Below are positions 14,147 to 39,336 of a stretch of DNA of 64,000 nt, piece after piece. Every line of letters starts with the position of its first letter. Positions within the stretch are counted from its first letter, which is position 1. The stretch is taken from positions 55,645 to 119,644 of the forward strand of contig CAZSPB010000003.1 of assembly GCA_964608725.1 (NCBI GenBank), in the 5' to 3' direction. This stretch comes from an uncultured archaeon (GTDB lineage: Archaea > Aenigmatarchaeota > Aenigmatarchaeia > Aenigmatarchaeales > Aenigmatarchaeaceae). Both the position numbers and the translations under genes were made by a program. Under the pieces are notes generated by a model that was not told the origin of the DNA, made no database searches, and saw nothing but the letters and a program-made list of their open reading frames with translations.

Positions 14147-14167
14147 TTGCTTATAATAAAGATAATT

Positions 14168-14962
14168 ATGAGTTACAAATACAAGCATAAAAGAAATAAA
14201 AGAGAGACTTTGCTATTTTTGATAGGTGTAATAATTGGTATAGTTATAGGAAGTGCAGTTAGCTATCACTTTTACAATTTCTATTTTAGTCTTCAAACTC
14301 CGAATGTTACAAATTTACCTAAACTTCAAAAAATAATAATTCCTCAGGCCAATTATACTTACTCTTATGTTGAGTTAGGCTTACCTGCTGTTGATCAAAA
14401 TGGAAACGGTGTTATAACTAAGTTAAGAGTTGAAGCAAGGCCAGGAAATGGAAAAGTTTTAACAAACATAGATAAACTTTTGTTTTGGGTCGATACTCAA
14501 CAATCTATACAAACTGCTAAAATAGTTGCAGAAAATGTTACTGGAATAGATGCAAGTAAATTTGATTTGATTTACACTATTGAAAGTAATGCTTCTCTTG
14601 TTGGTGGGCCTTCAGCTGGAGCAGCTTTAACAATTGCAACTATAGCAGTTTTGGAAAATAAAAGCTTAAAGAAAGGTGTTATGATGACAGGAACTATAAA
14701 TCCAGATGGAAGCATAGGAGAAGTAGGAGGTGTTTTAGAAAAAGCAAGAGCAGCAAAAGAATTTGGTGCAACCGTATTTTTAGTTCCTTATGGACAAGGA
14801 ACAGAAACTTATTTAGAACCTGAAGAAAAATGTGTAAGGAAGTTAAACTTTGTGTTTTGTGAAACAACCTACAAGCCGAAAACAATAAACATAGGAAAAG
14901 AAGTTGGTATTTCTGTTATAGAAGTTAAGAATATAGAAGAAGCATTAAAGTATTTTATTTAA
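14168..14962 (+). CDS. Membrane-anchored Lon-like (S16) serine protease domain protein
   Basis: N-terminal TM segment; 'GPSAGAALTIATIAVL' Ser and 'GEVGGVLEKARAAKEFG' Lys catalytic-region motifs. The longest ORF starts at 14081, but that start overlaps the SRP RNA, so the ATG at 14168 is preferred. Confidence 0.55.
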   Translation: MSYKYKHKRNKRETLLFLIGVIIGIVIGSAVSYHFYNFYFSLQTPNVTNLPKLQKIIIPQANYTYSYVELGLPAVDQNGNGVITKLRVEARPGNGKVLTNIDKLLFWVDTQQSIQTAKIVAENVTGIDASKFDLIYTIESNASLVGGPSAGAALTIATIAVLENKSLKKGVMMTGTINPDGSIGEVGGVLEKARAAKEFGATVFLVPYGQGTETYLEPEEKCVRKLNFVFCETTYKPKTINIGKEVGISVIEVKNIEEALKYFI

Positions 14963-16469
14963 GTACTTTCTTCAGAACACTTTGAGGATCTTTTCTATAT
15001 TGGGCAAGAATTGATGCAACATCTTTAAACTTAGTTATACCTTTTTTCTGCATCCATTCTAGAACAAGCTTTCTCTTTTTTAATTCTTCCCATAAATCTT
15101 CAAGTCTAACTCCTTTATGAGCTGCTAATTCTTGAAGGTACCAAGAGGAACCCTTTCTACTAAATTCAAATTTATCTTCATCAGGAGACCAATAATAAAC
15201 TGCATTTGTCCTTGCAACGCCAGTTTTTGGATCAACTGATTCTATTTCAACAACTTCCTTAACTCTTCTCGCTGTTTCACCTTTTTCTCTTGCATGAATC
15301 ATTATCACAACCATATCAAGAGTATCAACAAGAGAAGGAGATAAGTTTATAGGTGGTGTTTCCAACCTGTAAATAATATCTTCAACTCTTCCAGCGTGCA
15401 TAGTTCCTAAAGCAGGAATTCCAGCTGCCATACCTTGAAATAAAACGTAAGCTTCTTTACCTCTAACTTCTCCAACTATAACATAATCCGGAGTTTGTCT
15501 GAATGCTTCTTTTAATAAATCGAACATAGTTACTTCTCCATAACCTTTTGCAAAACCTATTCTTACAACAGAAGGAACCCAATTTTCATGAGGTAAGTTA
15601 AGTTCTCTTGTGTCTTCAATAGTTATGATTTTTGCTGCAGGTGGTATGAACATTGATAAAACATTTAAAAAAGTTGTTTTTCCTGCTCCTGCCCCTCCAC
15701 CTATTAGTATAGATGCTCCGTTTTCAACAGCTAACCAAAGGTAAGCTAAAACTTCACTACCTACAGTTTTGTTATTTAGTAAATCTATAGGAGAGAAAGG
15801 TTCTTTAACGAATTTTCTTATAGTAAAACTAGGTCCTCTTGCTGTTACATCTTTTGTAAAAGATGCTTGAACTCTTGAACCATCAGGGAGAGTACCATCT
15901 AAAAGAGGCTCAGCATAAGATATAAATCTTCCACATCTTTCAGCTAATTTTACTATAAACTCTCTCAACTCGTTAGAATCTTCGTAGATTATATTCGTTT
16001 TTATTGAACCATATTTTTTGTGAACAACGTAAAGTGGTACCCCTATGCCGTCACAAGAAATATCTTCTATATAAGGATCTTTCATTAAAGGTTCTATCTT
16101 GTTTAAACCAACAAAGTTTCTATAAATGTAATACATTATTTTTGCTTTACTTTTTTCAGAAAGTTTTATTTCATATTCATATAAAATTTTATTTATTTGT
16201 TTTTCTAAGTACTCTATTGCTTCTTCTTTCTTTCTTATAGCAGAAAGTTCTATATCAAGTATTTCAAGCAAACCATTTATGATTTTTTTATAAGTTTCTT
16301 CTTCACTTTTGCTTAATTTAGGTTCAACAACGTTATAAACAAACTCTTTATTTTTTTCATCCCACTTTATATCTGCAAAAACAAAAGGTGGTATTAGTTC
16401 ATATTTTACTCCAGCATTTCCTTTTGGAATATTAGGGAGAATTTCAGGTTTTTCCTTCTTAACTTTCAT
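14955..16469 (-). CDS. Type II/IV secretion-system ATPase (FlaI/VirB11/TadA family), archaeal pilus/archaellum assembly ATPase
   Basis: Walker A 'GGGAGAGKTT', a Walker B/Asp box, and VirB11-like His box regions. Confidence 0.7.
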   Translation of the reverse strand: MKVKKEKPEILPNIPKGNAGVKYELIPPFVFADIKWDEKNKEFVYNVVEPKLSKSEEETYKKIINGLLEILDIELSAIRKKEEAIEYLEKQINKILYEYEIKLSEKSKAKIMYYIYRNFVGLNKIEPLMKDPYIEDISCDGIGVPLYVVHKKYGSIKTNIIYEDSNELREFIVKLAERCGRFISYAEPLLDGTLPDGSRVQASFTKDVTARGPSFTIRKFVKEPFSPIDLLNNKTVGSEVLAYLWLAVENGASILIGGGAGAGKTTFLNVLSMFIPPAAKIITIEDTRELNLPHENWVPSVVRIGFAKGYGEVTMFDLLKEAFRQTPDYVIVGEVRGKEAYVLFQGMAAGIPALGTMHAGRVEDIIYRLETPPINLSPSLVDTLDMVVIMIHAREKGETARRVKEVVEIESVDPKTGVARTNAVYYWSPDEDKFEFSRKGSSWYLQELAAHKGVRLEDLWEELKKRKLVLEWMQKKGITKFKDVASILAQYRKDPQSVLKKVLK

Positions 16470-16501: not shown

Positions 16502-17443
16502 TTGCTTCTTCATTTTAATAACATGATACCAGAAAAAGTTAGAAAAATATTGAAGAAACAAAGGTATAAAATAGTAGGTAATCACTCAGCTGCAAAACTT
16601 TGTTTATGGACTAAAAGGTCTATAAAAACTGGAGGAAAAGAACATTGCTACAAAGAAAAATTTTACAAAGATATAGGAATAAAAAGTCATGGTTGTTTGC
16701 AGTGTACTCCAGCTGTAATGTGGTGCACTTTAAGGTGTAAATTTTGTTGGAGGGCCATAGAGTTGACTCTAGGACAAAAAATTGAAAAGGAAGATGATCC
16801 AAAATTTGTTGCTGAAAAGTTAATAGAAGCTCAAAGAGAACTTTTAACTGGTTTGGGTGGTGTTCCTCACGATGAAAAGCTATTGAAAGAAGCTTATAAT
16901 CCCACTAACGTTGCTATATCCTTAAGTGGAGAACCTTTCTGTTATTCTCAACTTTCAGATTTAATAAAAGAATTCCATAAAAGAGGGATGAAAACATTCG
17001 TTGTTACTAATGGCACTTTTCCAAAAAGGATAGAAAGTTTGGAAACTTTACCAACTCAGCTTTATGTTTCTTTATGTAGTAACAGTAAAGAAATGATGAA
17101 AAAAGTTCAAAACCCATTAATACCTGATGCATGGGAAAGGCTAAATGAAACTTTGGAGTTATTGCCAAACCTAAAAACTAGAAAAGCTATCAGGTTAACT
17201 ATGGTCAGAAATCTAAATATGAAAAATCCTGAAAAGTATGCAAAGCTTTTAGAAAAGACTAACGCAAATTTTATAGAAGTGAAAAGTTTTATGAGTGTTG
17301 GTTTTTCTAGGTTGAGACTTCCTTATTCTTCCATGCCATCACATCAAGAAATAAAAGAATTTGCTGAAAGAATTGCGAATTGTTTAAGTTATAAAATTGC
17401 TGATGAGAAAAAAGAGAGTAGAGTTGTTTTATTGAAGAAATAA
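16502..17443 (+). CDS. taw1: Radical SAM tRNA 4-demethylwyosine synthase (Taw1/TYW1)
   Basis: 'CTLRCKFCWR' CxxxCxxC cluster together with the upstream 'HSAAKLCLWTK ... CYKEKFYKDIGIKSHGCLQCTP' TYW1-type auxiliary-cluster region. Confidence 0.6.
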   Translation: MLLHFNNMIPEKVRKILKKQRYKIVGNHSAAKLCLWTKRSIKTGGKEHCYKEKFYKDIGIKSHGCLQCTPAVMWCTLRCKFCWRAIELTLGQKIEKEDDPKFVAEKLIEAQRELLTGLGGVPHDEKLLKEAYNPTNVAISLSGEPFCYSQLSDLIKEFHKRGMKTFVVTNGTFPKRIESLETLPTQLYVSLCSNSKEMMKKVQNPLIPDAWERLNETLELLPNLKTRKAIRLTMVRNLNMKNPEKYAKLLEKTNANFIEVKSFMSVGFSRLRLPYSSMPSHQEIKEFAERIANCLSYKIADEKKESRVVLLKK

Positions 17444-17921: not shown

Positions 17922-18014
17922 TGGGCCCGGCCGGATTTGAACCGACGTTACCAGCACCCCATTCCAGCAGTTAAACTGTAGCTGGTGTCCTAGACCAAGC
18001 TGAACGACGGGCCC
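17922..18014 (-). tRNA. Intron-containing tRNA (93 nt; ~18-20-nt intron in the anticodon region; anticodon unresolved)
   Basis: Reverse complement gives acceptor GGGCCCG/CGGGCCC, D-arm GUUC..GGAC, anticodon stem CCAGC...GCUGG enclosing 25 nt, T-arm GUCGG-UUCAAAU-CCGGC, discriminator A. Confidence 0.6.
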
Positions 18015-24425: not shown

Positions 24426-24586
24426 TGCGGAGGGCAGGATTTGAACCTGCGAAGGGACTAACCCACAGGATTTCTTTCATCTTTTGATCAAAACTTAAGA
24501 GCCAAGTCTTAAGTATCGCACAGCTGTCCTGCGCCTTTGCTCATGTTCGCTATGCGAACATATTGACCTGGCTTGGCTACCTCCGC
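24426..24586 (-). tRNA. Type-II-like tRNA (Leu/Ser class) with ~85-100 nt of intervening sequence; exact intron positions unresolved
   Basis: Reverse complement: acceptor GCGGAGG/CCUCCGC, discriminator A, D-arm 'UAGCCAAGCCAGGUCAA', T-arm GCAGG-UUCAAAU-CCUGC, and a variable-arm-like hairpin GGG-UUAGU-CCC. Confidence 0.5.
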
Positions 24587-26420: not shown

Positions 26421-26843
26421 ATGAAAAGTGTTTCAACTATTATAGTTTCTGTTTTAATTTTAATGATTGTCATTTCTTTAGCTGGCCTTGCCTATGTTTG
26501 GTTTACTGATATAATGGGAAGAATAACTGAAAGTACAACAGGAGTTATGAACCAAACTATAGTAGCTTTTGGTACTCAATTTAGGATAGAGGTTGCAAAG
26601 TATGACGCAAATAATAACATAACTGTCTCCATAAGAAATACTGGAACTCAAAATATAGATATGAGTAAAATTGCTGCTTACATAGAAGAAGAACCTGCAC
26701 AAATAAACTCTGGTAATAGTGGGATAGCGGAACCTGGAGATGTGAGAACTATAGGTGTTACTAACACAACAGAAGTTTGTGGAAAGTTGTTAAAAATAAC
26801 TACTGCAGTTGGTGTTTCCGATTCTAGAACAGTTAGCTGCTAG
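26421..26843 (+). CDS. Small secreted/membrane-anchored beta-sandwich-like protein, inserted on the opposite strand between S13 and S4
   Basis: N-terminal TM helix and a 'ITVSIRNTGTQNID' CARDB/DUF11-like strand pattern. No class III (pilin) signal-peptide cleavage motif was seen. Confidence 0.3.
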   Translation: MKSVSTIIVSVLILMIVISLAGLAYVWFTDIMGRITESTTGVMNQTIVAFGTQFRIEVAKYDANNNITVSIRNTGTQNIDMSKIAAYIEEEPAQINSGNSGIAEPGDVRTIGVTNTTEVCGKLLKITTAVGVSDSRTVSC

Positions 26844-28629: not shown

Positions 28630-29092
28630 AGATACTTAAAAGGTATCCTTTTGCATTGTTTATATTTATCTCAGAGAGTTTTCTGAACTTTACAGTATTA
28701 CCTCTTATCCCATACTTCTGAAAAATTATATTTGGAGATTCCCACCTTATTTCGTAAAGAGTTAAAGAACCTTTTTTAATGCATCTCTCTCTTATTCTAC
28801 CGTTCAAATTTGTCCAATCTTTTGGTTCACATATGTCAGTTTCTACAATTTGATAATCTATTATATCATCTTGTAAAGTTAACATGCCTTTTTCAACTGA
28901 AAATTTACACTCTCCAAAAGAGCTTTCTTCAATAGCGTTAAGAATTTTTCTATCACAAAAAAGAAACTCATTCTTAACTTTTTCAATTTCTGAAATAGCG
29001 TTAGATCTTTCAAAAGAAGTATAATTCATCCATATTAAAGAGAATAACAACAAACCTACACCAACATTCCCTATAACAAATAAAGGCTTCAT
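28619..29092 (-). CDS. Membrane-anchored hypothetical protein
   Basis: N-terminal TM helix; 157 aa. Confidence 0.3.
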   Translation of the reverse strand: MKPLFVIGNVGVGLLLFSLIWMNYTSFERSNAISEIEKVKNEFLFCDRKILNAIEESSFGECKFSVEKGMLTLQDDIIDYQIVETDICEPKDWTNLNGRIRERCIKKGSLTLYEIRWESPNIIFQKYGIRGNTVKFRKLSEININNAKGYLLSISIL

Positions 29093-29122
29093 AATTATTC
29101 TATAACATTTCTAATTAAAAAA

Positions 29123-29434
29123 TTAAGTAGGGGTTTCTAAAGTTGGGGGAATATAAGAAAGAGTTAGTAATATCATACCTAACAAAAAGATGTAAATTAA
29201 GAAGAGTAGTAACAATATTTTTGAAGAACCAAACACATACTTTAAAACAAAAAATAAAACTATCGAAAAAATGAAAACTGCTAAAGCGAAGCCTACTGGA
29301 CTTAAGCCAGAAATTACACTTAAAACTATGAAAAGTTCAATAAGCTTAAGGTAAATGAATTGGAAAGTATTGAGCATTTGAAGAATGAGACCAACAATTA
29401 ATTCTATTAACACTACTAGAGGAGATTTTAACAT
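29123..29434 (-). CDS. Small integral membrane protein
   Basis: 103 aa, almost entirely hydrophobic. Confidence 0.25.
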   Translation of the reverse strand: MLKSPLVVLIELIVGLILQMLNTFQFIYLKLIELFIVLSVISGLSPVGFALAVFIFSIVLFFVLKYVFGSSKILLLLFLIYIFLLGMILLTLSYIPPTLETPT

Positions 29435-29464
29435 AATAGTATTTTATCAAAAATATTAAAAATT

Positions 29465-30286
29465 TTAAGTTAAAATATTTCTTGTTGTTCTATAAAATTT
29501 GGTTGAAATTATTCTTGAAAGTGGAGTGTAAATTTTAACTAAAGTTGTGAAACCATTAACTTCTTTTAATTTTTTCCAGTAATCTCTTAAGAAAAAGTCA
29601 ACCTTTTCTTTTTCAACACCTTTATCCCCATCAATTTTATCATCTATTAGTTGAGCTATTATTCCAGAGTTATATGCAATTCTTCTCGTTTCTTCCCTTT
29701 TCTCTTCTAAAACATCTGGAAAGCTTTCTACAATATCACAAATTGTAAGTTGAAGAAGACCTCCAGTTTTTACACGTTCTTCATACTTTTTATTCTTATT
29801 CTCATCATTATGCCAAACTTTTATGAAATTTTCAAAATCATCTTTAAAATTACTTTTACTTTCTTCCCAACATGGTAAGGAACTTAACTCTTCTCCCACA
29901 AGCTTAGCTACTTCTATTGCTCCTTTTACACCAAATTCATTAGGCACAAAACCTTCTTCTCCAAGGATGTTTTCACCTATACTTTTTAAAAAATCATACG
30001 GTTTTGAAAGAGGTTTAACAAAATGGCCATCAATTAAATTATCTGCTACTCTTATCAGAAACAAGTAATCTCCACACAAAGATAAAACAGAAGAGTCGTA
30101 ATATTTTCCTCCTTCCATTTTATAATAATAAACTCCAACTATACCTTTTTCAAAACTTCCTGTACAAGCCAAGCTCCTTTTTAAAAAATCTTTCTCTTCT
30201 TTTTCTAAAATTAAATTGTTTATTTTTTCTTTCATAATTTTGAAATTCTTCCAAGATTCTCTTAAACTTTTCAAGAGAGTTTGCAT
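29465..30286 (-). CDS. Hypothetical protein with 'DNLID' and 'DDKID' Asp-rich motifs
   Basis: Two Asp-rich segments loosely resembling DDxxD motifs of isoprenoid synthases. Not enough similarity to assign a family. Confidence 0.25.
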   Translation of the reverse strand: MQTLLKSLRESWKNFKIMKEKINNLILEKEEKDFLKRSLACTGSFEKGIVGVYYYKMEGGKYYDSSVLSLCGDYLFLIRVADNLIDGHFVKPLSKPYDFLKSIGENILGEEGFVPNEFGVKGAIEVAKLVGEELSSLPCWEESKSNFKDDFENFIKVWHNDENKNKKYEERVKTGGLLQLTICDIVESFPDVLEEKREETRRIAYNSGIIAQLIDDKIDGDKGVEKEKVDFFLRDYWKKLKEVNGFTTLVKIYTPLSRIISTKFYRTTRNILT

Positions 30287-30341
30287 ATTTTTCTTTTGAC
30301 ACTAAATTTTAAAAATAGAACTCTTAAAAAGAATTTTACCA

Positions 30342-30896
30342 TTAAGAGTTAGAATTAAAAGATCGTAAATGTTTCAATTTATTCAACTTCCTTATTCTTT
30401 TAGCATATTCGTTCAGCTCTGAATAAAATTTTTGAAGTTTATTTGATTTTTTTGCTTTTAGTTTAACGTATTCTATTCTCTCCCAAGGAGAAGAATGAAC
30501 AATCTCATCTTTACATTCTACTGAAATCTTGCAATCTTCAAATTCATTTACAGGAAAAATGGGAGTTAAAAGTTTATCAAAGGTAGCATCTATCACCCTT
30601 CCTTCTACTTTTAATGCAAGGTGATATTGTTCTGGAAGATTACGAGATAGTTGTTTTAATCTTTCGCTAAGAAATTTTTGTTCTTCCCAATAGAAGGTAT
30701 AAGTTACATACGAAACGTCCAATCCTATTTCTTCATAAAGTTTTCCGAGGTAAAAATGTTTCGAAGTGCAACTACCTCTCCCATATTTTTCAATACTTTC
30801 TATAGCTTTTTGGTAATCTAATGAAGTTCCTGGAATAACTTCAAACGGTAAATCCCTGACTTTAACAAATAATTTTTTAGAGTGAGCTTCTTTCAT
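30342..30896 (-). CDS. Hypothetical protein, possibly transglutaminase-like Cys protease fold
   Basis: 'GRGSCTSKHFYLGKLYEEIG' weakly resembles a transglutaminase-core Cys motif. Confidence 0.2.
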   Translation of the reverse strand: MKEAHSKKLFVKVRDLPFEVIPGTSLDYQKAIESIEKYGRGSCTSKHFYLGKLYEEIGLDVSYVTYTFYWEEQKFLSERLKQLSRNLPEQYHLALKVEGRVIDATFDKLLTPIFPVNEFEDCKISVECKDEIVHSSPWERIEYVKLKAKKSNKLQKFYSELNEYAKRIRKLNKLKHLRSFNSNS

Positions 30897-31546
30897 TCCA
30901 ACACCTTCAAACAGTAAAACCTCAACCTTTCGTCAGAAGGAAAAGAAGGAGAAAAACGAATTTCAAAGTCTTCTCTCTTTAATAAATCTTCCATAGAAAA
31001 TTTTGTGGGAAAGTACCAATAACGACCATCGTAAAGTATACTATTCTTAACTTTATACTTTTCACATCTCTTAAATCGTGGAGGATAAAGAAGATTTTGG
31101 ATACATATATAAAGAACACCATTGGGTTTTAATACTCTCCAAAATTCATTTATTGCTTTCGCTTTTTCTTTATGGGGAAGATGTACAAGTGATGCGATAG
31201 ATAGAACACCATCAAAAAAATTATCGGGAAATGGCAATTTCCTTATATCAGCTTTGATAAGACTCGTATTTTTAAGTTTATTTTTTGCTAAATTTAACAT
31301 ACCTTCTGATAAATCGACTCCATAAAGTTCTGCAGAAAGATTCTCAAGATAAGCTAGATCTCTTCCTGTCCCACATCCTGCATCTAGAATCTTAGGTTTC
31401 TCTGATTCTGTTAGTTGGTAAAATGCATACAAATAAGGTTTTTCACTTTCACTCAATTCACCGTATTTTTTCTCATACTTTTTCGCTATTTTATCGTAAG
31501 TTTCTATTGTGAAAACTATTTCTCTCATATCTAATTTAAGAAACAA
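30893..31546 (-). CDS. Class I SAM-dependent methyltransferase
   Basis: Motif I 'ILDAGCGTGRD' and a downstream acidic motif. Confidence 0.6.
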   Translation of the reverse strand: MFLKLDMREIVFTIETYDKIAKKYEKKYGELSESEKPYLYAFYQLTESEKPKILDAGCGTGRDLAYLENLSAELYGVDLSEGMLNLAKNKLKNTSLIKADIRKLPFPDNFFDGVLSIASLVHLPHKEKAKAINEFWRVLKPNGVLYICIQNLLYPPRFKRCEKYKVKNSILYDGRYWYFPTKFSMEDLLKREDFEIRFSPSFPSDERLRFYCLKVLE

Positions 31547-31578
31547 ATTTTTATATTTATTCTGAATGAAAAACTTAT

Positions 31579-32226
31579 ATGAGGCTTACTAAAAAAGCTT
31601 GGAATAAAACATTTAAACAGCATGGCAAATTCTTTATAAAACCACAAGAAGATATACCAAAACTAGCTAGAGAATGGAAAAAAAAGAAAGTAAAAAGAAT
31701 TTTAGATTTGGGTTGTGGTTCTGGAAGGCATGTAGTTTATTTCGCAAAAAAGGGTTTTGAAGTTTATGGAATAGATATTGCCGAAGAAGGGATAAAAATT
31801 GCTAAGAAGTGGTTAAAGGAAAAGGAGTTAAAAGCTAAATTAAGAGTTGGCGATATTTACAAAAAACTTCCTTACAAAAGCAATTTTTTCGATGCAATAA
31901 TTTGTATAAGGACTTTGAATCATGGAAAAATTGAATGGATAAGAAAAACTATAAAGGAAATTTGGAGAGTTTTGCGACCATCTGGTTATCTTTTTGTAAC
32001 TGTTCATAAACATATGGGCAAGAAACATATACCAAAAGATAAACTTTATGGAATAAAATGGATTGCCCCAAGAACTTACATAATTTTAGGGGGGCCTGAC
32101 AAAGGAATTCCTCATTATCGTTTTAATAAACAGATTTTGATAAAAGAGTTTAAACCTTTCTTTAAAATAAAAAATATTTGGATTGATTCTGAACACTATT
32201 ATTGTTTATTGGGCATCAAAAAATGA
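31579..32226 (+). CDS. Class I SAM-dependent methyltransferase
   Basis: Motif I 'ILDLGCGSGRH' and 'VYGIDIAEE'. Confidence 0.6.
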   Translation: MRLTKKAWNKTFKQHGKFFIKPQEDIPKLAREWKKKKVKRILDLGCGSGRHVVYFAKKGFEVYGIDIAEEGIKIAKKWLKEKELKAKLRVGDIYKKLPYKSNFFDAIICIRTLNHGKIEWIRKTIKEIWRVLRPSGYLFVTVHKHMGKKHIPKDKLYGIKWIAPRTYIILGGPDKGIPHYRFNKQILIKEFKPFFKIKNIWIDSEHYYCLLGIKK

Positions 32227-33032
32227 TAACAGACTTCAATTGGCTAAAAAATCAAACGGATGAAGATGGAGTAAAAACTCTAGAATTATTAGAGAAAAAA
32301 TATTTTGAAATATATGAAAAAGGGAAAATATCTAAAAATAAGAGTTTATTTTCCCTTAAGTTGGGTGATTACAATTTATGGTTAAGAGAATGTAGCTTTC
32401 ACTCTTCTCTGGACATGTATGTTGATATATTTAAAAATAACAGGCATTTCCTATTGCCAGATTTTTATGAAAATTCTAAAACAGTGATAGATTGTGGTGC
32501 TCATGAAGGTTATTACACTTTGAGAGTCAAGAAAGAATGTCCTCAAGCTAAAATTATTGCTGTAGAGCCCAATTCATTAAATTTTGAAATTTTGTTAAGA
32601 AATGTTAAGTATAATAAATTGAGCGATGTATGTTGTATAAACAAAGCTCTATATGTAGAGCGCAAAACGATTCCATTCTATTTTGTGGAATATGTAGGAT
32701 CAGTGGGTGGTGTAGATCCATCACTACTAAAAAACCTTCATTCTTGGATAAAAGGAGAAATAAAGGAAACAGATATAGAAACTATAACTCTCCCAGAAGT
32801 ATTAGGTTCAATGAAGGTTGATATTCTTAAATTAGATATACAAGGAGTAGAACTAGCAGTATTAGAAAAAGAAAGAGATCTCATAAAAAGTAATGTAAAA
32901 AGAATAATCGTAGAATACCATAAAAAATATGAACGAGATAAGCTTATAAACCTTTTAGAGTCGATAGATTTTGAATTATGTTTAGAAGAAAAAAACAAAT
33001 TCCCTGCTGATTTATATTTCATTAAAAAGTGA
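32202..33032 (+). CDS. FkbM-family methyltransferase
   Basis: 'VIDCGAHEGYYTL' FkbM motif. Confidence 0.5.
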   Translation: MFIGHQKMITDFNWLKNQTDEDGVKTLELLEKKYFEIYEKGKISKNKSLFSLKLGDYNLWLRECSFHSSLDMYVDIFKNNRHFLLPDFYENSKTVIDCGAHEGYYTLRVKKECPQAKIIAVEPNSLNFEILLRNVKYNKLSDVCCINKALYVERKTIPFYFVEYVGSVGGVDPSLLKNLHSWIKGEIKETDIETITLPEVLGSMKVDILKLDIQGVELAVLEKERDLIKSNVKRIIVEYHKKYERDKLINLLESIDFELCLEEKNKFPADLYFIKK

Positions 33033-33503
33033 ATTTCTGTTATAGGTGTTTAGTTTGTGTACTTTACTATTAATAAAATAAAAAACTTCTTTTTCTTTAG
33101 TAAGAAGACCTACAAACTTAACATTTTTATAAGAGGAAAAAATTTTTGCTGCATAATATCGAGTTCCTCTTTTCTCGTTAGGCTTAATCTTTGATTTTTT
33201 TATTAATAGCATCCTACAAATACCTATAAAATGTAACTTTCTGTTAAGAAGATGAAAACCATCATGAAATTCTTTACTTGTTGAAAAGTTTATTAGAGTT
33301 TTAGCAACTGTATCCGTAGTTTTGGGCAAAGAATTTACTTTACGTAGCAATTTTGGTTCTTTTGAAGGTCTTAAAGGAAGGGTTTTTTCTAACAAACTTT
33401 TTGTTGTTATTGAAAAGCCTAATCCATAAAATTTTTTTGAGTAAATGTTAGAAAAGTATATACACTTTTCAAGTATTTCTCTTCCTATCATCTCTACTCC
33501 CAT
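33012..33503 (-). CDS. Hypothetical protein
   Basis: 163-aa ORF. Confidence 0.25.
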   Translation of the reverse strand: MGVEMIGREILEKCIYFSNIYSKKFYGLGFSITTKSLLEKTLPLRPSKEPKLLRKVNSLPKTTDTVAKTLINFSTSKEFHDGFHLLNRKLHFIGICRMLLIKKSKIKPNEKRGTRYYAAKIFSSYKNVKFVGLLTKEKEVFYFINSKVHKLNTYNRNSLFNEI

Positions 33504-34069
33504 TTTGCTAACACCTCTTTCACTCTAAAATGAAACTCCTCTAATTTCTTAGGCCTGGGTAATTTTTTCCTACCTTTAGGTTGAATAAAGATTCTGATGA
33601 AAATCGGGCCTTTTTTCTTAAACGCTAATTCAAACTTTTTTACAAATTCTTTTTTATTTTTAATAACCCAGTAAACTCTATAGCCTGCTATCTTCGCTAC
33701 TTTTTCCAACTTTATGTGGGATGAATACGTCTTCATACCTCCACTCGAGTAATAAACCCCATTATCTAAAAGTATATGGATCAGATTTGGAGGTTTTTTA
33801 TTGCCTATAGTACATATTCCTCCAAAATTCATTAGAAAACTACCATCACCATCTATACTGATAATTTTAACTTTCGGTTTAGAAAGGGCCATACCAAGGC
33901 CTATTGAACTTGCTAACCCCATTGAACCTGCCATATAGAAATGCTTCTCATATCCTCCTATTTCTACTCCTTCACGTCCTATCAAACCAGTTGGCGTTAT
34001 AACTATTGCTTTTCTTTTTTTAATTTTTCTGAAAATAATTTCTAGAACTTCTCTTCGACTCAACATCAA
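33494..34069 (-). CDS. TPP-dependent decarboxylase beta subunit (sulfopyruvate/phosphonopyruvate decarboxylase ComE/Ppd-like; TPP-binding C-terminal domain)
   Basis: 'GSMGLASSIGLGMALS...IDGDGSFLMN' TPP-binding GDG-x(n)-N motif. Confidence 0.6.
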   Translation of the reverse strand: MMLSRREVLEIIFRKIKKRKAIVITPTGLIGREGVEIGGYEKHFYMAGSMGLASSIGLGMALSKPKVKIISIDGDGSFLMNFGGICTIGNKKPPNLIHILLDNGVYYSSGGMKTYSSHIKLEKVAKIAGYRVYWVIKNKKEFVKKFELAFKKKGPIFIRIFIQPKGRKKLPRPKKLEEFHFRVKEVLAKWE

Positions 34070-34683
34070 AATACGCCTCGTTTAACTATAAGAGCTACAC
34101 TCTTATTTTTTTCAAGAATTTTACTAGCCTTTAAAATAAGATTCCTTATGTTATGTTGAAATATGATGAAATATTTTATTTTTAAAAGGGAAAGTATAGG
34201 AAGAGTAATTTTACCATCAATTAAATGATGGGTAGCATCTTCTCCAGGACAACCTCTCCAAGTTATTAAGAATGTGACTGGAATCTTGTAAGTAAGAAGT
34301 AATGAAGATATGTTATGGATAGAATTTAAAAAACCCGAATTTTGCATATATATAACCGCCTTCCTTCCCCCTATTACAGCTCCTGCAGCAATTCCTATTG
34401 CTTCACTCTCCCTTACAGCTGGAACATGAAGAATTTCTCTACGTTTTTCAATTTCTTTGATAATATATTTTTGTACTGCACATGGTACACCCGTTGCAAA
34501 ATTTATACCTACTTCTAATAACACTTCCACTAATTCTTTTGCCCTCTCTTTTCTAATATCCTCTGATAAATGTTTGTAAGTATTGGCCCCCAATTTTTTC
34601 ACCCTTAAATCTTGTGTACCACAATCCACGATAATTCTCCCATAATCTTGGTCTAAGGTTTGTATCTTCAAAAATTTCTTCAA
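34066..34683 (-). CDS. TPP-dependent decarboxylase alpha subunit (ComD/Ppd-like; pyrimidine-binding N-terminal domain)
   Basis: 'GVPCAV...RESEAIGIAAGAVIGG...MQNSG' TPP_enzyme_N pattern. The true start is probably downstream of 34683 because of the overlap with the radical SAM gene. Confidence 0.55.
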   Translation of the reverse strand: MKKFLKIQTLDQDYGRIIVDCGTQDLRVKKLGANTYKHLSEDIRKERAKELVEVLLEVGINFATGVPCAVQKYIIKEIEKRREILHVPAVRESEAIGIAAGAVIGGRKAVIYMQNSGFLNSIHNISSLLLTYKIPVTFLITWRGCPGEDATHHLIDGKITLPILSLLKIKYFIIFQHNIRNLILKASKILEKNKSVALIVKRGVF

Positions 34684-35647
34684 AAATTTTTCTTGCTTTT
34701 AAAAAATAGTCCAATTTCCTAGCTTCTGAACATCTCAAAACTTCATGAGAAGGGTGATACACTTGAAACAAATTTATTACAGGAAATCTTGTTAACAACT
34801 TTTTAAATTTTTGAAAAGCATAAGAAACGTTAGAAAGAGGATCTAAACCAAGTATATAAAGCAATGAAATCTCAAAATTATATTTTTGTAAGCGATGAAA
34901 AAATTTTATAATTTTTTCTATATGAAAGGGGGAAAAACTTTTTCTTTTATCAAGAAATTTATCTTGTTTTAAAGTTTCTAGTGTAAAATAATACGAAAAT
35001 TTTGGAATAATAGCTGAAATTTTCTTTAAACTTTGTTCACTCTTTAGTTGAGCTCCTATATATTTTATTTCTCCTGAAAAATTAAGCAGTGTAGCAGCAT
35101 TATGAATTGCAATTAAATGTTCAACTAGCTCCTTTTCATTTTTGAATAATCCTGTATTAAGGCAAATTTCTTCTAACTCTGAAAACTTTACTTTAGCAAA
35201 AGTTTCAATTTCTTCAAACCAATTTAAAAGCTCTTCAAATTTTAAAATTTTTCTATGAGCCCTTGGTGTTTGATAACGAGTACCACAAAATTTACATTTT
35301 CCTATGCAATTACTTCTTTCATTAGTATTTAACACAAGAACTCTTTTCTTTTTCCTAAAGTAACATAATTCGGCTACATCATTTTCCATTTTTTTTAAAT
35401 TACCTATTACTTCTCCATTTAAATGAACTTTTGAATTAGCTAAGTAAAATGGGGTGTGTGTAGTATTTAGGCATATCATAAGATAAAATGTTTTGTTTGT
35501 GAGTTTTGGAGAAAAATATGATCTTATTCTAAAAAACTGTAAAGGACTTTTGGCACCCCATGTATTTAGTGCAATTAAACATATATCAGTAGTAGGAATC
35601 TCATAATCTTGTGAATAAGTATAAATACTCTTTACATTTCTTAACAT
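34553..35647 (-). CDS. Radical SAM enzyme
   Basis: 'CIGKCKFCG' CxxxCxxC motif about 110 aa from the N-terminus. Confidence 0.5.
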   Translation of the reverse strand: MLRNVKSIYTYSQDYEIPTTDICLIALNTWGAKSPLQFFRIRSYFSPKLTNKTFYLMICLNTTHTPFYLANSKVHLNGEVIGNLKKMENDVAELCYFRKKKRVLVLNTNERSNCIGKCKFCGTRYQTPRAHRKILKFEELLNWFEEIETFAKVKFSELEEICLNTGLFKNEKELVEHLIAIHNAATLLNFSGEIKYIGAQLKSEQSLKKISAIIPKFSYYFTLETLKQDKFLDKRKSFSPFHIEKIIKFFHRLQKYNFEISLLYILGLDPLSNVSYAFQKFKKLLTRFPVINLFQVYHPSHEVLRCSEARKLDYFLKARKIFEEIFEDTNLRPRLWENYRGLWYTRFKGEKIGGQYLQTFIRGY

Positions 35648-35707
35648 ATTAAAATTAAAAATTACAGATTTTTATTTTTTTCTACTTAGAAAGAGTAAAT
35701 AATTAAG

Positions 35708-35898
35708 CGCCGAGGGCAGGATTTGAACCTGCGAGCCCCAAAGGGGCACCAGATAACTTACATCATTCCGCCTATCACTCCACATTTGCCGCCTTTCAGA
35801 GTCAAGCCATCATTTCATCTGTCTCAAGTATCGCTATCATCTCGAAATCAAAACTTGAGATGATTCTGGCGCGTTAAACCTGGCTCCGCCACCTCGGC
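35708..35898 (-). tRNA. Type-II tRNA (Ser/Leu class) with ~105 nt of intervening sequence in the anticodon region
   Basis: Reverse complement: acceptor GCCGAGG/CCUCGGC, Ser-like D-arm 'UGGCGGAGCCAGGUUUAACGC', anticodon-stem candidates CCAGA...UCUGG, variable-arm hairpin CCCC-UUU-GGGG, T-arm GCAGG-UUCAAAU-CCUGC. Confidence 0.55.
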
Positions 35899-35948
35899 GT
35901 AATTTAAATTAATATCTAAGAATTTTTAAATTTTACAGCACTTTATAA

Positions 35949-36095
35949 TCATTTCTTTGCTAGCTTTTTTCTCTTAATGTACTGCCAAATCTTCTTAGTC
36001 ATTTGAGCTGGAGATAAAGGTTTCTTTCCAACTATCTTAGCTAAATTTTCATCTGGTATTATCACATAACCTCCAAAAGGTTTTCTTTTGGCCAT
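35949..36095 (-). CDS. Small basic protein (48 aa)
   Basis: Unlisted small ORF 'MAKRKPFGGYVIIPDENLAKIVGKKPLSPAQMTKKIWQYIKRKKLAKK'; the 'KKIWQYIK' stretch weakly resembles a SWIB-like helix. Confidence 0.25.
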   Translation of the reverse strand: MAKRKPFGGYVIIPDENLAKIVGKKPLSPAQMTKKIWQYIKRKKLAKK

Positions 36096-36108
36096 TTTCT
36101 CACTTTTC

Positions 36109-36930
36109 TTATTTACTTTTCCCCCTATTTAATTGTGATTTTAAATGAAGAATATAAATTCCTCTCAAATTTTTAAACAAATCAGGAAAATCTGGGAAGA
36201 GTTCATTTATAGTTTCTTCTAAAATTTCTGCTTCAAAATAATATTCTTTTTCTCTAGCTACTCTCCTAACATCATTCAAATTCCACTTTTCAGACAATTT
36301 TCTGCCCATGAAATCGGATATAGTTGAAGTTATAGCTGTGAAAAAGTGAGAACATTCTTCAGGTGTCATTTTAATTAAATTCTTTTTAGTAAAGTTCCAC
36401 TTTCTCTTCACAGCTTTTAAAAGATTATTTTTGAAAATTTCATCAAAACTTTTTCTTGGATAGTCTATTTTTTCTCTAATAAATTTTTTTCCAAACTTTC
36501 CTATACCTTCAATATGAGCTCTCCAACAATTGAAGTAATACCAGTACTTATCACCTTCTCTAACATCACCTCTCAAATAAAAAGCATTAAAGTATTTTAA
36601 TAGTTTTTCATCTTCAGAAAAAACTTTAGGATTCAGGTTTCCATGAACATAGTGAGTTATCTCTTCTTCTAAAGAATAAGCAACATACTCTTCAATTTTT
36701 GGTTTTGGTTCAGGAAACTTTTTCTTAAGTTTTTTAAACTCATTATTAACATCTAAAACACCAACTTCTATAACATTTTCTCTAGGATTGTAAGAAAATG
36801 GTGAGAAACTTCTTGTTTTAATTTCAAATTTAGGAAGAGAAGTATCAAAATCCAAAAGATTACAAGCTTCCTCATGTATAACTTCAGAGTATTTATTTAT
36901 AGCTTTAGTTACAGCTTTCTTGAGCTTCAT
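36109..36930 (-). CDS. Hypothetical protein
   Basis: 273-aa ORF. Confidence 0.3.
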   Translation of the reverse strand: MKLKKAVTKAINKYSEVIHEEACNLLDFDTSLPKFEIKTRSFSPFSYNPRENVIEVGVLDVNNEFKKLKKKFPEPKPKIEEYVAYSLEEEITHYVHGNLNPKVFSEDEKLLKYFNAFYLRGDVREGDKYWYYFNCWRAHIEGIGKFGKKFIREKIDYPRKSFDEIFKNNLLKAVKRKWNFTKKNLIKMTPEECSHFFTAITSTISDFMGRKLSEKWNLNDVRRVAREKEYYFEAEILEETINELFPDFPDLFKNLRGIYILHLKSQLNRGKSK

Positions 36931-36961
36931 GTGAATTAAAAAGAGATAAAATTTTAAATTC

Positions 36962-37417
36962 TTAAGCTCTTTTCACTATAACATTTAAAGTTTTCTCTGC
37001 AAGCTTAGTGTTATTGTAATAAAGCTCTATTTTTATAGTGTATGGAGAGTATGGTTGATTACCCATTATCTTACCAAAAACTTTAAATTGAATTATATCT
37101 GAAGAACCCATGTCTATCAAAGTTCTAGTTGTTATTTCCTCTATTCTTTCATTAGTGTAAACTGAGATAGGATAAGCATAATCTGGATCTGAAGGTATGA
37201 ATTTTATGGTAAAGTTTGTAGGAATGTTTTTATTATCCATTTTTTTAATTGTTAAGGTAACTATTTCATTTGACTTTTCACCGTTTAAAGTTTCTATAGA
37301 ATCTTTATTCATTTCAAAGGATATTCCTGGTGTATACTTCCTTTCTTTAAAGAAATAGTAAAAAGAAAAAGCTATTATTAACAAAAAGATGAAAAGAAAA
37401 ATAACTTTCAATTTCAT
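36962..37417 (-). CDS. Secreted/membrane-anchored hypothetical protein
   Basis: N-terminal TM 'IFLFIFLLIIAFSFYYFF'. Confidence 0.3.
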   Translation of the reverse strand: MKLKVIFLFIFLLIIAFSFYYFFKERKYTPGISFEMNKDSIETLNGEKSNEIVTLTIKKMDNKNIPTNFTIKFIPSDPDYAYPISVYTNERIEEITTRTLIDMGSSDIIQFKVFGKIMGNQPYSPYTIKIELYYNNTKLAEKTLNVIVKRA

Positions 37418-38418: not shown

Positions 38419-38679
38419 ATGAGCCAAATTTACATAATTCACTTCAATCTGAAAGATTTGATTTCAGGAAAAACCCTGCATAAAAGTAAAATAGCAAAGA
38501 GTGATAAAGAAAGAGAAGAAATTTTAAAAAACTATATAAGAGAAGAAAATGGAAAAATAAAGTATGTTTCTAAGTATGATCAAGTTAGTGGGATGTATGT
38601 TACACCAGTGAGAGAAGATATTTACATGATGGAAAATGGGAGACTAATATTCTTAACTACAAGAAAACTTTTACTTTAA
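38419..38679 (+). CDS. Hypothetical protein
   Basis: 86-aa ORF. Confidence 0.25.
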   Translation: MSQIYIIHFNLKDLISGKTLHKSKIAKSDKEREEILKNYIREENGKIKYVSKYDQVSGMYVTPVREDIYMMENGRLIFLTTRKLLL

Positions 38680-39336
38680 AATTTTCAACAAATCTTTTAT
38701 ATTATTTATAACAAAATCTGGCTTAACCCTTGCTTTCTCTTTACTACCTCCATACTTGGCAAAGACAGTCTTGAAACCAAGTTTCTTTGCAGGCGCTATA
38801 TCCCTTTTCAAAGAGTCACCAACCATAACGCATTCTTCTGGTTTCAATTTTAATTTCTTTAAGATATAGAGGAATGGTTTTGGGTCAGGCTTCTTTTTTC
38901 TAGTTTCATCATAAGTTATGACAATATCAAAATTGTCTTGGATACCCATTGCAACAAGTCTTATCCATGCTTGTATTTTTGGAGCATCTGAAAGGATTGC
39001 TAGCTTGTATTTTTTCTTAAGCTCGTTTAAAACAGGAACTACATTTGGATAAGGATAGAGCAAACCTTCTTTCACTCTTCTGTAAGCTACTATTCCAGAG
39101 GCCATTATTTTATAGTCCACTCTCCCTATTACTTTTTTCAAGAACTTTTGGAATATTCTTTGATATTCTAAACCATACTTTGAATACAATTCGAAAAGAA
39201 TCTTCATTCCTTTTTGTTTGCTTATGTTTAATCCAGCTGATATCATTGCATCCATAGCTGCTTCACAAGAAAGCCTTTTCATTTTCATGAAATCTATTAG
39301 AGTATTATCAAGGTCAAAAATCACTGCTTTTATCAT
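38671..39336 (-). CDS. HAD-superfamily hydrolase (subfamily IA-like)
   Basis: 'VIFDLDNTLIDF' motif I, 'LSDAPK' motif II region and 'MVGDSLKRDI' motif IV. Confidence 0.65.
   Translation of the reverse strand: MIKAVIFDLDNTLIDFMKMKRLSCEAAMDAMISAGLNISKQKGMKILFELYSKYGLEYQRIFQKFLKKVIGRVDYKIMASGIVAYRRVKEGLLYPYPNVVPVLNELKKKYKLAILSDAPKIQAWIRLVAMGIQDNFDIVITYDETRKKKPDPKPFLYILKKLKLKPEECVMVGDSLKRDIAPAKKLGFKTVFAKYGGSKEKARVKPDFVINNIKDLLKILK

Follow-up and report, generated by a model that had tools for sequence, protein, structure and literature searches.

The stretch of DNA analysed here (64,000 nucleotides, referred to as the window) comes from a genome of the Nanoarchaeota type that belongs to a very reduced symbiont and not to a methanogen. 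In segment 30342–35647 it encodes a radical SAM enzyme with a CxxxCxxC motif, a split TPP decarboxylase of the Ppd/ComDE family and three methyltransferases, two of class I and one of the FkbM type (Table 1), and the question is what pathway these genes could serve. The gene content listed by the first-pass annotation was found in the window in full. The unit that it placed at 30893–35647 does contain those genes but reaches further, to the 184-aa gene, and of the small genes that it left as unknown, one encodes a PanS-like DAC domain. Two aspects had been overlooked, namely that a cross-domain module is built around the radical SAM gene as its conserved anchor and that the methyltransferases, the 184-aa gene and a HAD phosphatase are recurrent members of it.

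Table 1. Genes of the locus and their closest assignments (positions in the window)
Feature	Position	Strand	Properties
Radical SAM enzyme	34553..35647	-	364 aa; unnamed family, founding member
TPP decarboxylase alpha (PYR)	34066..34593	-	175 aa; TIGR03845, 118.6 bits; RhiE (9iz3_A), E 6e-27
TPP decarboxylase beta (PP)	33494..34066	-	190 aa; TIGR03297, 168.5 bits; TIGR03846, 140 bits; RhiF (9iz3_B), E 9e-28
Minimal DAC (diadenylate-cyclase-like), PanS-like	33012..33503	-	163 aa; profile against 37jy_A, E 2.2e-25
FkbM-family methyltransferase	32202..33032	+	TIGR01444, 93.9 bits
Class I SAM methyltransferase MT2	31579..32226	+	70% identical to L002 methyltransferase
Class I SAM methyltransferase MT1, accessory paralogue	30893..31546	-	
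184-aa protein, Cys43/His92/Asp103 invariant	30342..30896	-	probably transglutaminase-like
HAD-family phosphatase, possible detached member	38671..39336	-	3 kb off the operon

The genes for the radical SAM enzyme, TPP alpha, TPP beta and the PanS-like DAC form a single operon of four translationally coupled genes, in which the end of the radical SAM gene overlaps the start of the alpha gene by 41 nt and the DAC and beta genes overlap by 10 nt. Both TPP subunits are present where they had been proposed (33494–34683), but public gene calls and a 74%-identical homologue place the start of alpha most likely at the TTG codon in position 34593 rather than at 34683. MT2 with FkbM, the start of which overlaps the upstream MT2 gene, and MT1 with the gene for the Cys-His-Asp protein make up a divergent pair of transcription units.

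The top NCBIfam match of the alpha subunit is the ComD model TIGR03845, followed by the Ppd model TIGR03297 at 114.4 bits, while beta matches Ppd (TIGR03297) and ComE (TIGR03846) as given in Table 1. Models of the ALS type reach at most 29 bits, which bears out the earlier assignment to the Ppd/ComDE family rather than to ALS-like enzymes. Both subunits lie under the Ppd and ComDE equivalog cut-offs (147.95 bits for TIGR03845, 221.5 for TIGR03846 and 312.5 for TIGR03297), and the two TIGR03297 scores taken together sum to only about 283 bits. The best match of solved structure for both subunits is RhiEF, the split Ppd of Bacillus subtilis (PDB 9IZ3/9IZ4). With RhiEF and with environmental split Ppd the window enzyme shares the two-subunit build of PYR and PP domains, and the RhiEF/Ppd motifs (catalytic Glu, QNSG, WRG...H and GDG...N) are kept. 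The catalytic Glu62 of alpha lies within RESEA (34399–34413) and the thiamine-diphosphate/Mg motif GDGS...LDNG of beta at 33758–33850; the catalytic residues are kept across 27 radical-SAM-linked alphas, and beta has the GDG...N motif. As for the phylogeny of the subunits against Ppd and ComDE, membership in the same family stands, but in neighbour-joining trees without support values the radical-SAM-linked betas branch outside both the PepM-linked/RhiF group and the bacterial ComE group. The closest beta relatives that have no radical SAM link are genuine Ppd enzymes encoded within phosphonate clusters.

The radical SAM enzyme carries CIGKCKFC at 35285–35308 (most members of its family have CxxCxxC rather than CxxxCxxC), an N-terminal beta-rich domain of about 105 aa and an invariant C-terminal WENYR motif (34628–34642). 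No relative of the family was found in Pfam, NCBIfam or the PDB. Among weak HMM matches are CofH and MqnC-type models, which recall MqnE, PolH/NikJ and viperin, enzymes of enolpyruvyl radical addition or nucleotide modification. However, no family membership with these could be demonstrated at the sequence level, and the N-terminal domain and WENYR motif are unique to the window family. Members occur in DPANN archaea, CPR bacteria, Gammaproteobacteria MAGs and actinomycetes and were not found in viral contigs.

The DAC protein contains the motifs HDGF (33255–33266) and RGTRYYAA (33147–33170), and Pfam DAC weakly matches 8 of 9 members of its family. The family profile aligns over the full length with PanS, which serves as minimal DAC synthase in Panoptoo, an anti-phage system (PDB 37jy; Ragucci, Haley, Kranzusch, bioRxiv Aug 2026, PMC13640738), and the pairwise comparison gives 27% identity with E 8e-9. 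Both proteins consist of a minimal DAC domain of about 150 aa with HDGFH and G-x-R-Y-x-A-A motifs. They differ in that the window protein belongs to an archaeon and is set among metabolic enzymes, to relatives of which (TPP-beta, methyltransferase, HAD) it is fused elsewhere.

The methyltransferases of the window best match small-molecule types (UbiE, UbiG, TehB, ArsM). MT2 is the one kept across the clade; it and FkbM match a fused MT2~FkbM protein of another locus (L105) with E 3e-95 and 1e-73, respectively, and FkbM is 41% identical to the FkbM protein of a Saccharibacteria cluster (L020). The gene for the 184-aa protein was found in 16 of 80 genome loci, and its invariant Cys-His-Asp residues suggest that it is probably transglutaminase-like; Transglut_core matches 2 of 13 family members, and these only weakly. 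The HAD phosphatase may belong to the module, as it matches the HAD half of a HAD~DAC fusion in L105 (E 3e-14), although a HAD gene near the cluster is not conserved in the closest relative, L002.

The module genes recur together at 35–70% identity in DPANN, CPR and Gammaproteobacteria MAGs, with the reservation that binning errors could affect MAG taxon labels. L002 (beta 69% identical) retains the radical SAM, alpha, beta, DAC, MT2 and 184-aa genes. More distant relatives with radical SAM enzymes 36–44% identical, in Parvarchaeota, Saccharibacteria, Falkowbacteria and Gammaproteobacteria MAGs, retain the radical SAM, TPP, DAC~MT, HAD, two methyltransferase and 184-aa genes. An independent search with the DAC motif alone returned 16 metagenome loci, 12 of which contain the radical SAM/TPP/MT/HAD genes; the remaining four show the DAC only, three on contigs of at most 3.2 kb and one on a 6.8-kb contig (L106) where only a methyltransferase was seen besides. 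Several pairs are fused: DAC~MT in L016/L017, L020 and L025, TPP-beta~DAC in L019, L022 and L111, and both pairs of L105 mentioned above. Because the same genes recur in the neighbourhood and several pairs are fused, the arrangement is not due to chance.

The type of partner follows the radical SAM tree. Among 78 species loci, a TPP enzyme is Ppd-like in 26 and phosphoketolase-like in about 20, and a DAC, GGDEF-like or GrpB partner is present in 50; GGDEF-like or GrpB nucleotidyltransferase-fold partners and phosphoketolase-like TPP enzymes are found with other radical SAM clades. ORF calls at high-GC loci are crude. About one third of the radical SAM loci, comprising class B (TPP-MT-rSAM) and the fused-TPP loci, lack a cyclase-like partner, so the nucleotide link may be accessory or regulatory. 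We found no description of this module in the literature.

Ordinary coenzyme M or sulfonate metabolism, with the split enzyme acting as ComDE on sulfopyruvate, would fit the ComD and ComE matches and the shared split architecture. A ComDE in a non-methanogen, which had been called unexpected, is not surprising in itself, as split homologues are known in Sulfitobacter. Still, we regard this explanation as highly improbable: neither score reaches its equivalog cut-off, the host is no methanogen, beta lies outside the bacterial ComE group, ComA, ComB and ComC families were seen neither in annotated neighbourhoods nor among the 30 window ORFs scanned, and it would give no account of why a radical SAM enzyme, a DAC and methyltransferases accompany the split enzyme. 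A classical phosphonate pathway is unlikely, though less so. Here PepM would be encoded elsewhere in the genome, the split enzyme, as a true Ppd, would form phosphonoacetaldehyde, and the methyltransferases, HAD enzyme and radical SAM enzyme would tailor a phosphonate for the decoration of lipids or glycans. Beta is 43–48% identical to split Ppd whose genes neighbour PEP_mutase in one locus (L009) and, in another (L006), genes for an aminotransferase of the AEP type, an NTP transferase and a CDP-alcohol phosphatidyltransferase, RhiEF is the best solved relative, and since the family-wide active-site residues are unchanged, phosphonopyruvate could be the substrate. Since the equilibrium of the mutase is unfavourable, the genes pepM and ppd normally lie next to each other, but tblastn over the 64 kb agreed with the first-pass annotation that the window has no PEP mutase, and PepM is likewise missing from L001–L004 and from the 6–10 kb around some 45 independent radical-SAM/TPP clusters. 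The sole exception is an Actinophytocola locus (L060), where PepM lies beside that locus's own fused Ppd and the family radical SAM gene is 6 kb away. No aminotransferase or alcohol dehydrogenase that could handle phosphonoacetaldehyde adjoins the cluster, nor does ComA, ComB or ComC, here or in the related clusters. Together with the translational coupling to a radical SAM gene, the sub-cut-off scores, the branch outside the PepM-linked group and the very reduced host, this leaves the phosphonate, sulfonate or glycan-decoration pathway proposed earlier without support.

Alternatively, the radical SAM enzyme and methyltransferases could act on RNA or protein and produce a hypermodified base in tRNA or rRNA, or a modified residue in a protein, comparable to wyosine or diphthamide. 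Reduced symbionts keep mostly information-processing genes, FkbM and a class B methyltransferase weakly match TRM5/TYW2 and RrnaAD, and a transglutaminase-like protein could have a protein target. We nevertheless consider this quite improbable, as no RNA or protein modification pathway is known to use a Ppd-type decarboxylase, a HAD phosphatase, or a set of enolase-superfamily and phosphoketolase-like enzymes. Moreover, a separate ordinary Taw1 is encoded in the window (16502–17443), the methyltransferases are of small-molecule types, and actinomycete loci with neighbouring B12 radical SAM enzymes and, in some, ABC-transporter ATPases suggest small-molecule clusters. The full-length homology to PanS and the patchy, transfer-like phyletic spread favour decoy signalling against phages as in Panoptoo, where the DAC would be a constitutive source of a cyclic dinucleotide and its neighbours would be effectors or signal-modifying enzymes. 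Panoptes uses a cyclase of a different type from the DAC of Panoptoo, and the GGDEF-like partners of other radical SAM clades recall this substitution. Yet such a role is about as doubtful as the phosphonate pathway, as no locus has a conserved membrane effector adjoining the DAC (PanE itself was outside the search), PADLOC models match only by generic methyltransferase similarity, and the DAC fusions are unlike a synthase-effector pair. Furthermore, the radical SAM family was not found in viral contigs, no defence genes were seen nearby, and the word "radical" does not occur in the text of the Panoptoo preprint (PMC13640738).

These comparisons lead us to propose, with roughly even confidence, that the region functions as a single unit, namely a conserved and horizontally spread biosynthetic module dedicated neither to coenzyme M nor to a classical PepM-dependent phosphonate but to a methylated nucleotide-derived or nucleotide-linked product. 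The data show what the genes encode, that their catalytic motifs are conserved, that they are syntenic and in places fused, and that partner type varies with the radical SAM clade; from this we infer the substrates, chemical steps and product. The radical SAM enzyme would use a SAM-derived radical to form a 3-substituted pyruvate or other 2-oxo intermediate, and by analogy with MqnE and PolH/NikJ its likeliest substrate would be a PEP/enolpyruvyl-type or nucleotide compound. The TPP enzyme would decarboxylate the 2-oxo acid to an aldehyde, and the DAC could form a 3'-5' phosphodiester from NTP, yielding either a cyclic-dinucleotide-type scaffold or a nucleotide handle on an intermediate. O-, N- or S-methylation of the product, removal of phosphate by the HAD enzyme and an acyl or amide step by the Cys-His-Asp protein may complete the pathway. 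The proposed steps do not explain the need for a transglutaminase-like protein or for three methyltransferases, and the module reading is weakened because the closest beta relatives outside radical SAM loci are real Ppd enzymes.

A conceptual parallel, and only that, exists in fosfomycin biosynthesis, which uses the cytidylyltransferase Fom1, the Ppd Fom2 and the radical SAM enzyme Fom3, the last acting on a nucleotide-tagged intermediate; the module would likewise combine Ppd-type, nucleotidyl-transfer and radical SAM enzymes. However, Fom3 belongs to another radical SAM class as a B12-dependent methylase, the nucleotidyltransferase fold of Fom1 differs from the DAC, and PepM, essential in that pathway, is absent from the window. 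The pairing of a radical SAM enzyme with a phosphatase in PolH/PolJ may be likened to the phosphatase partnering of the window family.

The module is shared with other archaea and bacteria that have reduced genomes, and what it makes is probably a small molecule related to nucleotides and not coenzyme M or a classical phosphonate. If this reading is true, such a methylated compound, derived from or linked to a nucleotide, would act as a signal, as an antimetabolite, or as a factor of the cell surface or of host interaction.

The first-pass annotation listed the genes of this cluster correctly, and its assignment of the split TPP enzyme to the phosphonopyruvate decarboxylase (Ppd)/sulfopyruvate decarboxylase (ComDE) type holds, as only Ppd and ComDE models match strongly and models of the acetolactate synthase type stay below 30 bits. 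The beta subunit scores 168.5 bits against the Ppd model TIGR03297 (model positions 171–347) and 140 bits against the ComE model TIGR03846. The alpha subunit scores 118.6 bits against the ComD model TIGR03845 and 114.4 bits against TIGR03297 (model positions 1–155). The two halves sum to about 283 bits on the Ppd model, short of its cut-off of 312.5 bits, and the ComDE cut-offs (147.95 bits for TIGR03845 and 221.5 bits for TIGR03846) are not reached either. The best solved relative is RhiEF, the split Ppd of Bacillus subtilis (PDB 9iz3), with E-values of 6e-27 and 9e-28. One coding boundary needs revision: the alpha gene, previously taken to extend to 34683, most likely starts at a TTG codon at 34593, giving a protein of 175 aa and an overlap of 41 nt with the radical SAM gene. 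The alpha and beta genes share a stop/start overlap, and the beta gene overlaps the 163-aa DAC gene by 10 nt. These overlaps indicate that the radical SAM, alpha, beta and 163-aa genes form one tightly coupled operon.

Positions of the cluster genes and other features in the window and in related loci (L-numbers; L002 is the closest relative)
Feature	Sequence	Positions	Strand
Radical SAM enzyme	window	34553–35647	-
TPP-alpha	window	34066–34593	-
TPP-beta	window	33494–34066	-
DAC, 163 aa	window	33012–33503	-
FkbM methyltransferase	window	32202–33032	+
Methyltransferase MT2	window	31579–32226	+
Methyltransferase MT1	window	30893–31546	-
184-aa protein	window	30342–30896	-
273-aa protein	window	29465–30286	-
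HAD protein	window	38671–39336	
Apparent intron-bearing tRNA	window	35707–35898	-
48-aa ORF, SWIB/MDM2 match	window	35949–36095	-
Archaeal-type SAM synthetase	window	55723–56925	-
Archaeal SRP RNA	window	13861–14133	
tRNA match, 161 nt	window	24426–24586	-
tRNA match, 93 nt	window	17922–18014	-
tRNA match, 84 nt	window	7609–7692	+
504-aa protein, YadA_head repeats	window	121–1635	+
Type IV pilin/archaellin-like small proteins and T2SSE ATPase	window	26421–26843; 14955–16469	+; -
Module beside T2SSE ATPase	L002	4112–8369	
Fused-TPP module	L064	9348–12209	
Radical SAM and GrpB genes	L012/L013	8001–11350	
Type (iii) clusters	L071, L068, L050, L067, L095	about 9000–16000 in each	
Cobalamin riboswitch	L050	1215–1400	+

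The catalytic Glu62 of the alpha subunit lies within RESEA, and in the beta subunit GDGS73–76 and LDNG100–103 make up the TPP motif GDG-x(24–27)-N(N), so that the catalytic apparatus of Ppd is present. All 27 radical-SAM-linked alpha subunits retain every residue (GVP[C/D], the catalytic Glu, QNSG, Y, P, R-G and H) that is invariant in a reference set consisting of RhiE, three environmental or actinomycete Ppd alpha subunits and one Sulfitobacter ComD. Judged by these residues, the catalytic scaffold of the TPP enzyme is intact, and the conserved alpha residues together with the GDG...N motif of beta leave almost no doubt that it actively decarboxylates a 2-oxo acid resembling a 3-substituted pyruvate. 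Beyond the Nanopusillaceae clade, the nearest relatives of beta are true split Ppd enzymes of phosphonate clusters, one adjoining PEP_mutase, Fe-ADH and NTP transferase genes (L009) and another adjoining genes for an aminotransferase, an NTP transferase and a CDP-alcohol phosphatidyltransferase (L006). The radical-SAM-linked beta subunits themselves nest neither in the PepM-linked/RhiF group nor in the bacterial ComE group of a crude neighbour-joining tree, which, like our other trees, carries no support values and includes few labelled Ppd and ComE references and no methanogen ComE, and serves as a consistency check only.

The window radical SAM protein has the three-Cys [4Fe-4S] motif and the partial TIM-barrel fold of its superfamily. 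None of its 61 homologues at E up to 0.01 has a name, and most lack a Pfam match. The best NCBIfam radical SAM model (CofH) matches at E ~0.003, far below its cut-off, and a sequence-profile search of the PDB with the family returned no match at E up to 10. Positions C114 and C121 are invariant and C118 nearly so, the spacing being CxxCxxC in most members compared with CxxxCxxC in the window protein; a beta-rich N-terminal domain and an invariant WENYR at the C-terminus are further features of the family. The family is outside the curated models, and the superfamilies of all module components are known.

A species-level scan with one genome per species yielded 91 relatives of the radical SAM protein, of which 80 loci were kept. 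They occur in DPANN archaea (Nano-, Parv-, Aenigm-, Woese- and Micrarchaeota), in CPR bacteria (Saccharibacteria, Parcu-, Falkow-, Davies- and Nomurabacteria), in MAGs of Gammaproteobacteria and Rickettsiales, in Treponema lecithinolyticum, in many actinomycetes, and in Sorangium and Hoeflea. Viral contigs contained no relative of the radical SAM protein and only one lone DAC. The radical SAM gene anchors a module wider than the window cluster, and four types of gene neighbourhood follow the radical SAM tree. Type (i), that of the window, comprises radical SAM, TPP-alpha, TPP-beta, DAC (often fused to a methyltransferase), HAD, two methyltransferases and the 184-aa gene, with both TPP subunits in one fused protein in some DPANN loci. 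In type (ii), TPP-alpha, TPP-beta and a 274-aa methyltransferase precede the radical SAM gene, which in other loci adjoins a distant DAC-like gene. Type (iii), from actinomycetes, Sorangium and Hoeflea, consists of genes for a GGDEF-like protein, the radical SAM enzyme, an enolase-superfamily protein, a HAD protein, a small unknown protein and a phosphoketolase-like TPP enzyme, and some loci also contain a B12 radical SAM gene; type (iii) probably represents a natural-product cluster not yet characterised. Type (iv), radical SAM followed by GrpB, is found in CPR including human oral Saccharibacteria, with tyrosine-phosphatase-like genes in some loci.

A Ppd-like enzyme is present in 26 of 78 species loci and a phosphoketolase-like enzyme in about 20 of the 78, and 50 of the 78 contain a partner of DAC, GGDEF-like or GrpB type. 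The actinomycete partner gene is GGDEF-like, with matches to diguanylate cyclases of the PDB at E 4e-7. Proteins of nucleotide-cyclase or nucleotidyltransferase fold are a recurrent partner of the module, sometimes physically fused to it, and the cluster genes form a conserved unit that has been exchanged across domains. The GrpB (nucleotidyltransferase-fold) gene lies directly 3' of the radical SAM gene in L012/L013 and in 17 other CPR loci; these GrpB-linked loci have no TPP enzyme, and those of the oral lineage are flanked by Y_phosphatase3 genes. As the group includes relatives of cultivable strains, it is experimentally accessible. A fused-TPP module (184-aa gene, radical SAM, fused TPP enzyme, methyltransferase) was also seen in L064, a MAG labelled Methanosarcinales; either a genome of a methanogen lineage carries it or the contig is a mis-binned DPANN sequence.

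The 163-aa protein is, like the synthase PanS of the Panoptoo anti-phage system, a minimal DAC. The profile of its family (A3) matches PanS (PDB 37jy_A) at E 2.2e-25 over residues 5–142 of 147, followed by DAC-domain proteins and CdaA, and the window protein alone aligns with PanS at 27% identity (E 8e-9). Both proteins have the motifs HDGFH and G-x-R-Y-x-A-A; in the window protein, as in PanS, the canonical DAC motifs DGA and RHR are replaced by HDGF and RGTRYY. The Pfam model DAC (PF02457) is weakly matched by eight of nine family members (best E 2.5e-5), the window protein scoring 15.4 bits (E 0.014) against a gathering cut-off of 27 bits. A phmmer search of 1.84 billion representatives with the 163-aa protein gave only 11 matches; divergence within the family is too great for searches with a single sequence. 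The DAC stands alone in the window, L018, L021 and L029, and is fused to a class I methyltransferase in L016/L017, L020 and L025, to TPP-beta in L019, L022 and L111, and to HAD in L105. An independent metagenome search with the DAC motif only found 16 loci, 12 of which have a radical SAM, TPP, methyltransferase or HAD gene beside the DAC, and three of the four with the DAC gene alone are on contigs of 3.2 kb or less.

Among the remaining genes, the overlapping MT2 and FkbM genes of the window correspond to a single fused protein in L105, and the Saccharibacteria cluster L020 has an FkbM protein 41% identical to that of the window. The 184-aa protein occurs in 16 genome loci with invariant Cys43, His92 and Asp103; two of 13 members match Transglut_core (PF01841) weakly (best E 0.0024), and a single-sequence AF2 model, at pLDDT 35, was unusable. 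The window HAD protein shares homology with the HADs of the clusters (E 3e-14), and its gene lies 3 kb from the cluster; L002, the closest relative, has no HAD close to its cluster, and the window HAD is an uncertain member of the module. The 273-aa protein was rejected as a module member: none of the related loci has a homologue, and it is thus probably outside the module. It has no Pfam or NCBIfam match, and its Asp-rich motifs DNLIDGH and DDKIDGD resemble those of class I isoprenoid synthases. Rfam searches for riboswitches found none in window positions 29000–37000 at E up to 1 and none adjoining 15 related clusters, the sole riboswitch being a cobalamin one in the actinomycete MAG L050, where the radical SAM cluster lies about 9 kb further downstream.

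The SRP RNA and intron-bearing tRNAs mark the window as archaeal. Its housekeeping genes include aRF1, a class I aminoacyl-tRNA synthetase, TFB, HerA/NurA, SecY, Cbf5, Taw1 and the SAM synthetase (PF01941, 580 bits), with which this reduced genome can supply SAM for the radical SAM enzyme and the methyltransferases. Among named sequences, those most closely related to the cluster proteins are from Nanopusillaceae MAGs, and the host is of Nanoarchaeota type. GC content is ~0.30 across the whole window, the cluster included, giving no compositional sign of recent transfer. What appears to be a tRNA gene, with a ~115-nt intron, lies immediately upstream of the radical SAM gene (acceptor stem GCCGAGG/CCTCGGC; T-arm GCAGG-TTCAAAT-CCTGC). 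Neither default ARAGORN nor Rfam, even at E up to 1, calls it; ARAGORN with introns allowed reports tRNA-Gly(gcc), with anticodon and intron placement uncertain. Three further tRNA matches are found by Rfam and not by default ARAGORN, and their lengths suggest that they probably contain introns, which are typical of Nanoarchaeota-like genomes. The 48-aa ORF, between a neighbouring 273-aa gene and the intron-bearing tRNA, has a precomputed Pfam match to SWIB/MDM2; SWIB is a chromatin-associated domain, unusual for an archaeon. The 504-aa protein matches YadA_head repeats (E 2.5e-11) and may be a surface adhesin; YadA is an adhesin motif of bacterial trimeric autotransporters and is unexpected in an archaeal symbiont. 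The window also encodes pilin-like proteins and a T2SSE ATPase, and in L002 genes for a T2SSE ATPase and a polytopic membrane protein immediately precede the module, an adjacency that is probably coincidental.

On sequence grounds, the strongest alternative reading of the module is classical phosphonate synthesis with a distant pepM gene. The absence of PEP mutase from the window, stated in the first-pass annotation, was confirmed by tblastn with a PepM query, which also found nothing in L001–L004; among L012–L097 only L060 matched, where PepM adjoins that locus's own fused Ppd. Against phosphonate synthesis, adjacency to PepM, aminotransferase and ADH genes is wholly lacking in about 45 clusters. 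Coenzyme M synthesis fits poorly, as does RNA or protein modification. No methanogenesis, coenzyme M (comA/B/C), cysteate synthase or PEP-mutase families were detected among 30 window ORFs scanned or in the annotated flanks. Within the window and the neighbourhoods examined, the module does not travel with PepM or ComABC.

The homology of the DAC to PanS and the patchy distribution of the module suggest a Panoptoo-like defence system instead. According to the Panoptoo preprint of August 2026, PanS is constitutively active in producing 3'3'-cUA or c-di-AMP and governs a membrane effector (PMC13640738). Against this reading, no conserved membrane protein accompanies the DAC in the loci examined, and the fusions join the DAC to metabolic enzymes. 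The PADLOC 2023 defence models likewise detected only a generic methyltransferase similarity, to mad2. The word "radical" is absent from the indexed text of the preprint, so that an association between radical SAM enzymes and DACs appears not to be covered there. Our literature search returned no paper that connects radical SAM enzymes to Ppd/ComDE-type enzymes in DPANN or CPR, and the gene combination is matched by no described pathway or defence system. In kind, the module belongs with radical-SAM-dependent small-molecule clusters and pathways using Ppd/ComDE-type decarboxylases, in a variant form.

Confidence is fairly high at the level of the module and low for the chemistry that we propose. 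In the small-molecule pathway envisaged here, the radical SAM enzyme would supply the 2-oxo-acid substrate of the decarboxylase, a step that fits the tight translational coupling of the genes and the replacement of the decarboxylase by other 2-oxo-acid or ketose-phosphate enzymes in other clades. There is precedent for it, as PolH/NikJ and MqnE add radicals to enolpyruvyl groups. A conceptual parallel is the fosfomycin (Fom) pathway, in which a Ppd-type decarboxylase, nucleotidyl transfer and radical SAM chemistry also come together. The DAC would join an NTP through a phosphodiester to provide a scaffold or handle, and the methyltransferases, the HAD and the Cys-His-Asp protein would tailor the product. 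We speculate, as a rather unlikely possibility in its entirety, that the unnamed radical SAM family makes a 3-substituted pyruvate by a new PepM-free reaction (for example, between a SAM-derived or nucleotide radical and PEP or another enolpyruvyl unit), and that this leads, with the minimal DAC, the Ppd-like decarboxylase and the methyltransferases, to a new class of modified nucleotide or cyclic-dinucleotide-like metabolite, which could serve signalling, host interaction or immunity in episymbiotic DPANN and CPR and, in a related form, be a natural product in actinomycetes.

The fusions and the recurring trio of radical SAM enzyme, TPP enzyme and nucleotide-cyclase fold allow the chemistry of the module to be tested directly by heterologous expression. 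For annotation, a DPANN or CPR genome in which these TPP genes are labelled "phosphonopyruvate decarboxylase" or "sulfopyruvate decarboxylase" may be wrongly credited with phosphonate or coenzyme M metabolism. Decarboxylases of the Ppd/ComDE type gain a context beyond phosphonate or coenzyme M synthesis, and a minimal cyclase of the PanS type is now seen within a metabolic operon and in Archaea. Nanoarchaeota and Saccharibacteria have lost almost all biosynthesis. That such reduced symbionts share, exchange and keep a module of eight or nine enzymes indicates that it likely matters for the symbiotic lifestyle.
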